Below are positions 16,833 through 17,898 of a stretch of 22,017 bases of DNA, in pieces; positions within the stretch are counted from its first letter, which is position 1; each line of letters starts with the position of its first letter. Source of the DNA: Escherichia phage vB_EcoS-885R8; the sequence record ON470602, one strand, 5' to 3'. A model generated the notes under the pieces. That model saw nothing but the letters and a program-made list of their open reading frames with translations. It was not told where the DNA came from and did not search any database. The position numbers and the translations under genes are program-made.

Positions 16833-17898
16833 TCCTTACTCTGGCATCAACCACATTAATATTGATCGCCACAGGCTGGGGATGTTCATTATCTTCCACC
16901 GTTTCGATCTCTTTGCGCAGCTTCTGGTTTTCCATTCTGCGCCGTTCAATTTCCAGTTCCTGTAGCCGCTTATCTGCACATAAATCCCCGCCAGCAGAAA
17001 GCAAACGCAACAATTCACGCCGGGCGGCAGCCTTATCCTCCAGCAGGATCTCAACGCCGAATTTTCCGAATTTTGCCCCTGCATATAATTGCCGCGCATC
17101 CCCATCAAGCAGAGTGGTATCAGCCATATAAAGCTGTCCCGTTCCCTCACCGCAGCACTTCGGGCAGTCCGGATTGGGTATGGCGTTATCAACAAAGCCG
17201 AGGCCTCCATATTCCGGTTCGGGTTTGCCATCTCTGGAAGCCTGCGCCGCTGCCTTGTCGAATTCTGCTATATCGCGCCACTGGTAGAGATGATTCTCGC
17301 CCCAGCAATAACGGCAGTTAACACGGCGAAATTGTGCAAGCTGATTGGGGTCGGCCAGGACAATAGCCATCAACTGACTCACTAGTAAATCCAGGTCTGC
17401 GGTATAGCGTTTCTGGTACTGATTGCGGAAGTAGCTGATAGCGCGAAAAACCCTGGCATTTCTAAGCATACGACTGGCGTTGCTGTTAGCTGTCGCACCT
17501 TGCCCCTCATAACCGGCTAGTCGGTACGCCTCTGTCGGCTTTTTACCCTGAGCAACAAGCATCGCAAACTTAGCCTGCTGGTCAGAAATGCCGAATTCAT
17601 CGGGACAGAACGAAAATTCCTCCGCGTCGCCCTCATTCAGGCCCGCATCGAATACTGGCTTTTTTTCCTGAGATTTTTCGTTCCGCTTTTGTGCAGTCTG
17701 CGCAGATTTTTTCTGCGCACTTTTTTGCGCAGTTTTGCACATTTCTGTCTGCGCATTTTTCGGAGTTTTTTTGATGTAACGACGGGCTGTTGCGTAATTC
17801 AGTCCCCTTGCTTCACACCATGCCACCGGAGATATACCGGAGCGGGTGTATTCAGCAATATACTCCTGCTGCAACGCCCCCCAGTCCGGTCTGCTCAT
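16804..17898 (-). CDS. terminase small subunit, unusually long (364 aa), with an extra N-terminal HTH and a Cys cluster
   Basis: N-terminal HTH-like segment (GISPVAWCEARGLNYATARRYI), Lys/Gln/Ala-rich linker, then a Terminase_2-type signature (QQAKFAMLVAQGKKPTEAYRLAGYEG...SNASRMLRNARVFRAI), then CxxC...CxxCC; directly 5' of the large terminase. Confidence 0.7.
   Translation of the reverse strand: MSRPDWGALQQEYIAEYTRSGISPVAWCEARGLNYATARRYIKKTPKNAQTEMCKTAQKSAQKKSAQTAQKRNEKSQEKKPVFDAGLNEGDAEEFSFCPDEFGISDQQAKFAMLVAQGKKPTEAYRLAGYEGQGATANSNASRMLRNARVFRAISYFRNQYQKRYTADLDLLVSQLMAIVLADPNQLAQFRRVNCRYCWGENHLYQWRDIAEFDKAAAQASRDGKPEPEYGGLGFVDNAIPNPDCPKCCGEGTGQLYMADTTLLDGDARQLYAGAKFGKFGVEILLEDKAAARRELLRLLSAGGDLCADKRLQELEIERRRMENQKLRKEIETVEDNEHPQPVAININVVDARVRSDEDDLSDA
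17661..17772. repeat. phased A/T-tract and CTGCGCA-type repeat block inside the 5' part of terS (candidate pac site / bent DNA)
   Basis: plus-strand T-runs recur every 10-14 bp, interleaved with TGCGCA/CTGCGCA motifs; the same stretch encodes the AQK-rich linker. Confidence 0.45.

Follow-up and report, generated by a model that had tools for sequence, protein, structure and literature searches.

The pac site of bacteriophage P1 is a 161-bp segment lying within pacA that contains seven hexamers, the synonymous recoding of which cut the P1 titre approximately 9-fold (PMC10028697). These hexamers start at codon 65 of pacA, 20 codons after the part coding for a helix-turn-helix (HTH) domain (...ARRYLRAF), with spacings of 7, 12, 15, 12 and 11 bp, and the annotated cleavage points are located inside pacA between clusters of four and three TGATCA/G hexamers. 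Which DNA a phage packages, including host DNA in generalized and lateral transduction, depends on its pac site, yet such sites have been established by experiment in very few headful phages. Here we analyzed a 22,017-nucleotide stretch of Escherichia phage vB_EcoS-885R8 (ON470602), hereafter the window, whose small terminase gene terS (16804-17898, minus strand, encoding 364 residues) carries an array of the palindromic hexamer TGCGCA at positions 17690-17755. On comparative grounds, we consider it probable that this array provides the sequence-specific element of pac in a Rac-type prophage, functioning as a recognition array of the P1 type. The kind of site is already known from P1; what is new here is that the hexamer differs and escapes Dam control, that the copies form one cluster, that the small terminase has a body of the G1P type and that the element has spread like a cassette.

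The original prediction had drawn attention to positions 17661-17772 as a stretch within terS where T-runs alternate with TGCGCA motifs, and this description was borne out. From 17660 to 17772, the plus strand contains eight runs of at least four T residues, i.e. A-runs on the coding strand that are mostly Lys AAA codons, with lengths of 7, 5, 4, 6, 6, 4, 5 and 7 and start-to-start spacings of 14, 13, 20, 14, 12, 23 and 10 bp. Eight such runs in 112 bp is the maximum observed in the whole window, and none of 300 dinucleotide shuffles reached this number (largest count, seven). Perfect TGCGCA copies are found at 17699-17704, 17714-17719, 17726-17731 and 17750-17755; they represent 4 of the 11 copies present in the 22-kb window, three of them read CTGCGCA, and four copies within 60 bp never occurred in 1000 dinucleotide shuffles (largest count, three). 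Together with two decayed copies bearing one mismatch each, TGTGCA at 17690-17695 and TGCACA at 17736-17741, they form an array of six slots in 66 bp, with spacings of 9, 15, 12, 10 and 14 bp and A-rich spacers between the hexamers. Positions 17661-17772 encode amino acid residues 43-80 of TerS (KKTPKNAQTEMCKTAQKSAQKKSAQTAQKRNEKSQEKK), the beginning of a linker following the N-terminal HTH domain, and the array itself corresponds to codons 48-70, directly after the ...ARRYIKK segment at residues 38-44. As in P1, hexamer copies are thus clustered beyond chance expectation inside the gene of the recognition subunit, just 3′ of its HTH-coding part.

We compared terS homologues drawn from species each represented by a single genome (L004-L048), IMG/VR (L049-L128) and phage records, using as a null model the synonymous codon resampling of the same proteins over the 45 codons that follow the HTH. 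In 32 species-level class-1 genes, this segment contains 153 TGCGCA copies when 15.2 are expected; the window terS alone has four copies against 0.34 expected, a number that none of 2000 synonymous resamplings attained. The copies are distributed over the three reading frames (115 as xxT-GCG-CAx, 28 as xTG-CGC-Axx and 10 as TGC-GCA), and the encoded residues vary accordingly, being T/S/N/P/A/I-A-Q, L/V/M-R-x or C-A. For instance, the corresponding segment of Klebsiella phage ST974-OXA48phi18.2, whose protein shares 40% identity, reads ACTGCGCAAACTGCGCAAAAACCTGCGCAGAAGAAACTGCGCACTGCGCAAAAGGAAAAGTGCGCAG and contains six TGCGCA hexamers in three frames (T-A-Q, L-R-T and C-A). Both decayed slots of the window read TGCGCA in relatives: at 17736, where the window has ATG-TGC-AAA (M-C-K), close relatives have ATG-CGC-AAA (M-R-K), so that in L005 (Shigella, 94% identical) this slot falls in another reading frame. 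Arrays of the homologues comprise four to eight copies, and the commonest class-1 spacings (7, 9, 12, 14 and 16 bp) resemble those of P1. An explanation based on the protein only fails in view of the reading-frame and resampling tests, and these sequence comparisons show that the TGCGCA array is kept by selection on the DNA itself. The earlier proposal that protein and DNA constraints are superimposed in this segment is thereby supported. Homologues of the Klebsiella/Enterobacter type also have a second group of two or three TGCGCA copies (V-A-Q, I-A-Q and [VM]-R-T) about 190 nucleotides after the first, totaling 39 copies against 6.5 expected (L003:3347-3400; equivalents in L010-L046). This second cluster, also seen in P0336 and missing from the window, recalls the two-cluster layout of the P1 pac site.

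The candidate reader of the hexamers is the N-terminal domain of TerS (residues 1-44, ...GLNYATARRYIKK; 17767-17898, minus strand), for which AlphaFold2 predicted helices at residues 6-20, 24-31 and 35-38, with predicted local distance difference test (pLDDT) values of 84-87 over residues 11-40. The N-terminal fragment matches phrog_1711 with an E-value of 4e-6 (4e-5 for the whole protein), a family matched by P1 PacA at 4e-202, and both proteins also match phrog_370. Using tblastn, this domain was found to share 56% identity with TerS of the 933W type and 36% with PacA of the P1-like phage D6 (E = 5e-4). These profile comparisons show that the TerS HTH domain is homologous to the N-terminal domain of P1 PacA, while the rest of TerS is not PacA-like. 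Pfam detected no HTH family in the N-terminal 95 residues, with only a chance match to MBT; the PacA N-terminus itself gave sub-threshold matches to HTH_23/HTH_28, and a PDB sequence search with the single TerS protein returned nothing significant.

The identity of the hexamer follows that of the HTH encoded just upstream. The homologues begin with a conserved domain of about 44 residues (MxKPDWGxLQ...GISPKxWCEAQGLNYxxARRYIKK), and for the helix variant ARR[YH][IV]K, TGCGCA is the top hexamer in 118 of 119 distinct sequences. The variant AKRY[IL]x goes with TGCGAA, often as the palindrome TGCGAATTCGCA, which is the top hexamer in seven of the eight distinct genes checked (six of seven in one set, plus P0369 and P0328, one gene being counted in both sets); the exception is L041, in which TGCGAA ties at three copies behind an unrelated hexamer. 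TGCGAA copies also fall in several frames, encoding T-A-K, V-R-N and C-E. The variant ARTRIK of the 933W Shiga-toxin (Stx) phages is followed by four copies of [CT]GATCAT, and the variant ARRYL[RQ], found in P1 PacA and in the metagenomic P0336, is followed by TGATCA. Mean hexamer counts per HTH class reveal no cross-contamination between classes, and one switch comes near a one-residue/one-base code, the change of Arg39 to Lys going with that of C5 to A. In the reverse direction, scanning IMG/VR for three close TGCGCA copies yielded 120 stretches, at least 76 of which have this HTH directly upstream, the others being unrelated tandem repeats mostly located in GC-rich contigs. Little further diversity came from another metagenome scan and a second protein search, whose output consisted largely of near-identical or truncated sequences. 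From these comparisons, we conclude that the hexamer is linked to, and co-varies with, the HTH encoded immediately before it.

A natural exchange illustrates this linkage. TerS of 933W and that of the related phage PhiR12_3 (75% identical overall) are nearly identical over residues 1-18 and most of the C-terminal body, and they differ in helices 2-3 of the HTH and in the array, which consists of four GATCAT in the former and seven TGCGCA in the latter. Comparison of the two shows that HTH helices 2-3 and the array were replaced together. In 933W, the four [CT]GATCAT copies are spaced by exactly 12 bp (L131:1642-1683; AF125520, approximately 28916-28957), encode IDHEIDHKTDHEIDHD, and have the same core and Dam site as the P1 pac hexamers. 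We predict that the 933W array is the pac site of 933W-type Stx phages. Our literature search found no described pac site for these phages, nor any account of the GATCAT array in their terS or of arrays made of TGCGCA or TGCGAA. Overall, the HTH and its array are joined to at least four different bodies, namely the Terminase_2 type, the 933W type, a '...KHGGY' type and PacA. Because reader domain and site lie within about 200 bp, they can be inherited and exchanged as one specificity cassette. We lean slightly towards the view that the HTH and the following array constitute a portable, self-contained packaging-specificity cassette of about 200 bp, in which the site also codes for the tether of the HTH domain, and which would have been combined with at least four unrelated TerS bodies and have acquired at least four specificities (TGCGCA, TGCGAA, GATCAT and TGATCA).

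Comparison with the known pac systems places this locus closest to P1 in its recognition part. The two share short palindromic hexamers 7-15 bp apart, located in the gene of the recognition subunit just after its N-terminal HTH part; hexamers occur in several reading frames in P1 as in the TGCGCA-class arrays, and the N-terminal domains belong to the same two profile families. In contrast with P1, TGCGCA lacks GATC and hence the Dam methylation switch, the window contains a single cluster of four to six copies instead of four plus three copies flanking an IHF site and the cut, and the remainder of TerS is Terminase_2/G1P-like with a TerL of the Terminase_6 type rather than PacB. The 933W-type Stx phages have a homologous N-terminal domain immediately followed by a four-copy array, but their hexamer contains a Dam site as in P1, their recognition helix is TARTRIKM and their TerS body is different. 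The body of the window TerS is homologous to G1P of SPP1/SF6 (Pfam Terminase_2; 3zqp, E = 2e-5), and in these phages too, repeats and A/T runs occur in a pac region that overlaps with terS (PMC4737164). However, the SPP1 pac spans the promoter and the start of the gene, and the DNA-binding domain in isolation does not read its repeats specifically, whereas the window TerS adds an N-terminal HTH associated with a strictly conserved, co-varying hexamer, and the A-tracts of the window lack helical phasing. Finally, the P22/Sf6-type systems have in common with the window a pac located inside the terS frame of a headful-packaging temperate enterobacterial phage. They rely on one asymmetric, non-repeated site of about 22 bp and on another TerS family, in contrast with the multi-copy hexamer array described here. 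In P22/Sf6-type phages, wobble-position mutations can separate the site from the protein (PMC11260489).

The pac interpretation rests on three observations: TGCGCA is under selection as DNA, it changes together with the HTH, and this HTH is homologous to that of PacA, whose pac site has the same layout. Several points weigh against it. Two of the six slots are decayed in the window and slots 2, 4 and 6 are polymorphic in close relatives, which implies either that not every copy is essential or that the prophage is under relaxed selection. TGCGCA is not a GATC hexamer under Dam control, although GATC is present in the 933W-type and P0336-type arrays, and two clusters flanking an IHF site and a cleavage point are not what the window displays: no second TGCGCA cluster was detected in it when one mismatch was allowed, nor was the IHF consensus WATCARNNNNTTR found within terS or near the array. 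Since the isolated DNA-binding domains of SF6 TerS are nearly devoid of sequence specificity (PMC4737164), repeats of a pac region need not be read base by base. Direct BLASTP comparison of the window TerS with PacA is weak (E = 0.044), the homology resting on profiles, and Foldseek found no significant match of the N-terminal model in the PDB, the best ones being largely HTH domains with E-values above 0.7. Two divergent ARRYIK-type terS genes (P0343 and P0376) have no array in the sequence searched. The homologues are phylogenetically related, and their counts overstate the number of independent events. Lastly, the pac assignment proposed for this phage and its class-1 relatives comes from sequence comparison.

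The architecture of TerS suggests how such a site could operate. Between residues 45 and 95 (17614-17766, minus strand) lies a Lys/Ala/Gln-rich linker that separates two DNA-binding modules; it is probably disordered according to the model (pLDDT of 45-61 over residues 41-70), and its length varies in close relatives by insertions or deletions of 9, 12 and 36 nucleotides. The second module, approximately residues 100-150 (17449-17601, minus strand), is SF6/SPP1 G1P-like and starts the Terminase_2 body, which places this TerS in the G1P/Terminase_2 family. The profile of alignment A2 matched the SF6 small terminase 3zqp (E = 2e-5, profile positions 92-170) as well as two structures of the DNA-binding domain of SF6, 4zc3 (E = 0.005) and 2cmp (E = 0.008). 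By these matches, the window TerS has two DNA-binding modules. Because the SF6 module reportedly binds DNA weakly and with almost no sequence specificity when isolated (PMC4737164), a division of labour between a specific 'address' domain and a wrapping ring fits this organization. In the mechanism that we propose, the flexible Lys-rich linker would tether the PacA-like HTH to the SF6/G1P-like body, and the DNA coding for the start of this linker would carry the four to six copies of the hexamer recognized by the HTH. Several HTHs of one TerS oligomer would occupy neighbouring hexamers on the replicating concatemer, the weak HTHs of the body, arranged as a ring, and the A-rich spacers would assist the wrapping of the DNA, and TerL (15522-16832) would then be recruited and make the first cut nearby. 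Headful packaging would proceed from there, probably in the terS-to-terL direction. Binding of the HTH to the hexamers, a cut close to the array and the direction in which packaging runs are inferred from the features described above.

The same linkage between HTH and array could serve another function. The comparative data connect the HTH to the array only, and not to what the resulting complex does; the array is situated at the head of the late structural operon, and in L330 a different HTH protein is followed by TGCGCA-type repeats. TerS or another protein bound to the array might repress the transcription or translation of terS and terL, or the array might be a replication or partition-like site. 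We regard this as unlikely given that the domain is found on small terminase subunits of several unrelated body types, that its homologue PacA uses an equivalent array as pac (PMC10028697), and that a site located 130-210 nucleotides inside the gene has no evident promoter role. In L330 (approximately 2951-2979), the HTH protein contains ...SEATARGYISKL... and the repeats encode LRKSAQTNAQICA; the same type of site may be used outside terminases.

The original prediction had proposed a candidate pac site with intrinsically bent DNA in this stretch. A recognition site is indeed the reading favoured by the comparative evidence, but the helically phased A-tract bend invoked for it found no support. 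The centres of the T-runs have a best period of 11.75 bp (resultant of 0.91, equaled by about 2% of random placements) instead of 10.5 bp, so that successive tracts lose register with the helix; the resultant falls to 0.07-0.24 at 10.25-10.75 bp, where 94% of random placements are as good. Judged from the positions of the T-runs, helix-phased A-tracts of the SPP1/SF6 type are therefore not found. Twelve bp correspond to four codons, i.e. to an [ST]-A-Q-K repeat. It could still be argued that the terminase selects the curvature or flexibility of A-tracts alternating with GC steps, the hexamer being secondary: the TerS body is G1P-like, SPP1/SF6 pac DNA is made of runs of 5-7 AT pairs among GC/CG steps and chosen by its conformation (PMC4737164), and the densest A/T-run cluster of the 22 kb lies precisely here. 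Yet, when the equivalent 114 nucleotides of 31 class-1 genes are compared, A-runs vary between 2 and 8 (median of 4) while the hexamers stay at 4-6, and an exact hexamer that is conserved and switches with the HTH is unexpected for a readout of shape only. AAA is mildly preferred among Lys codons of the array (68% versus 58% elsewhere, p ~0.01, on related and hence non-independent sequences). With their varying number and weak codon preference, the A/T-tracts are a variable, weakly supported feature, and the conserved element is the hexamer. We thus find recognition by shape quite improbable, although the A-rich spacers may have a softer role as flexible or wrappable DNA, as proposed for pac of SPP1/SF6 (PMC4737164). 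In the linker (17660-17772), the A6-A9 runs also seem frameshift-prone. When the N-terminal domain was used for a profile search, the matches included over 100 database open reading frames (ORFs) of 44-91 residues that leave the frame inside the repeat region (P0121-P0240); these could be prophage pseudogenes, sequencing errors or real slippage.

It is very improbable that the array is a mere coding by-product, in which TGCGCA and the A-runs would simply be the codons of a low-complexity, [ST]AQK-rich basic linker expanded by slippage. Such an origin would account for the fact that the four perfect copies of the window are all in one frame (x-A-Q), that the T-runs are Lys AAA codons with a period of four codons, and that copy number changes through the in-frame insertions or deletions noted above for the linker. 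It does not explain a tenfold over-representation of the hexamer given the protein, the use by homologues of the other two frames with unrelated residues ([LVM]-R-x and C-A), sometimes at the very slot of the window, or the change of hexamer with the HTH variant while the chemistry of the linker stays similar. Equally hard to credit is an mRNA element formed by pairing of the palindromic hexamers in the terS transcript to control translation or stability: the segment 17655-17780 (minus strand) folds at −30.4 kcal/mol (z = −3.8) and contains a fully paired hairpin of 8 bp (UGCGCAGA/UCUGCGCA), but any set of palindromic hexamers folds well, spacing (7 to 16 nucleotides) and copy number vary among homologues so that no single structure is conserved, class-2 arrays use the non-palindromic TGCGAAT, often as direct repeats, and the co-variation with the DNA-binding helix would be left unexplained.

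If the P1-type reading is correct, the rule of an HTH followed by hexamers would allow pac sites to be read directly from the genomes of a large group of enterobacterial prophages. It would provide predicted pac sites for Rac-type prophages, for many Klebsiella/Enterobacter prophages and for the 933W Shiga-toxin family; the N-terminal domain is also present in about 150 Stx-phage records. The rule predicts chromosomal sites able to act as pseudo-pac and suggests designs such as packaging-specific phagemids or prophages rendered packaging-dead through synonymous changes of the kind previously made in P1. How a terminase HTH reads DNA could be studied compactly with the natural swaps of specificity. 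In the prophage Rac-SA53 (L001:2794-3822), terS is annotated as a gpO-terS fusion generated by a deletion; the HTH has been lost and the region of the KTAQKSSQKKSALTAQKR array retained, so that our model predicts a prophage unable to recognize its own pac. The divergent ARRYIK-type terS genes at L336:237-989 and L337:1501-2268 depart from the rule: within the 2.5-3.8 kb searched, no array of TGCGCA, TGCGAA or GATCA was found, and their site may be elsewhere or of another kind.

The window belongs to a Rac-type prophage of E. coli and carries trkG, ynaK, ydaY and capsid genes of the P22 family, and at least 80% of it was found in 678 of 5426 complete E. coli genomes. Assignment of terS is supported by matches to Pfam Terminase_2 (PF03592; E = 2.4e-8, 35.1 bits for a cut-off of 26.1) and to phrog_51 'terminase small subunit' (E = 2e-76), by the RefSeq label of the same gene, terminase small subunit, and by its location in a head-gene operon, upstream of and overlapping terL. 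The latter gene (15522-16832, minus strand), which codes for the nuclease and ATPase partner, overlaps the end of terS, is followed by the portal gene, and matches Pfam Terminase_6N (E = 4e-33) and Terminase_6C (E = 3e-10). The Terminase_6N domain is described in Pfam as 'T4likevirus-type', and TerL of the related phage PhiR12_3 is annotated 'T4-like headful'; from both we infer headful packaging, which fits pac rather than cos. A sequence search of the PDB with the window TerL returned no match. In the near-identical prophage of the closest RefSeq genome (L215:2324-5556, 99.6% identical), the annotation records a frameshift and an internal stop in the tape-measure gene and only a partial ynaK. 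This lineage of prophages is possibly defective, and the decay of two hexamer slots in the window would fit such a state.

Upstream of terS, an ORF encoding 83 residues (17902-18153, minus strand) ends four bases before the terS start codon. Its match to phrog_309 'terminase small subunit' (E = 8e-23) covers positions 145-218 of the 319 in the profile, and no Pfam family was matched. It could be what remains of a second type of TerS, or a helper of one; its counterpart is missing upstream of the Klebsiella and Yersinia terS homologues. Also just upstream of terS, beside trkG, are genes coding for a TET-associated glycosyltransferase (Pfam TAGT, E = 8e-35) and for a YnaK-like ParB_N protein (18089-19042 and 19014-19805, both on the minus strand), so that a role in DNA modification is conceivable. 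TGCGCA contains GCGC and might be a methylation target connected with this glycosyltransferase, but no TET dioxygenase and no methyltransferase, for cytosine or otherwise, is annotated within the window. Finally, the Terminase_2 body of TerS has an insertion containing the invariant CxxC pairs C195/C198 and C245/C248 (approximately 17155-17316), which suggests a zinc ribbon, unusual for small terminases of the G1P type.

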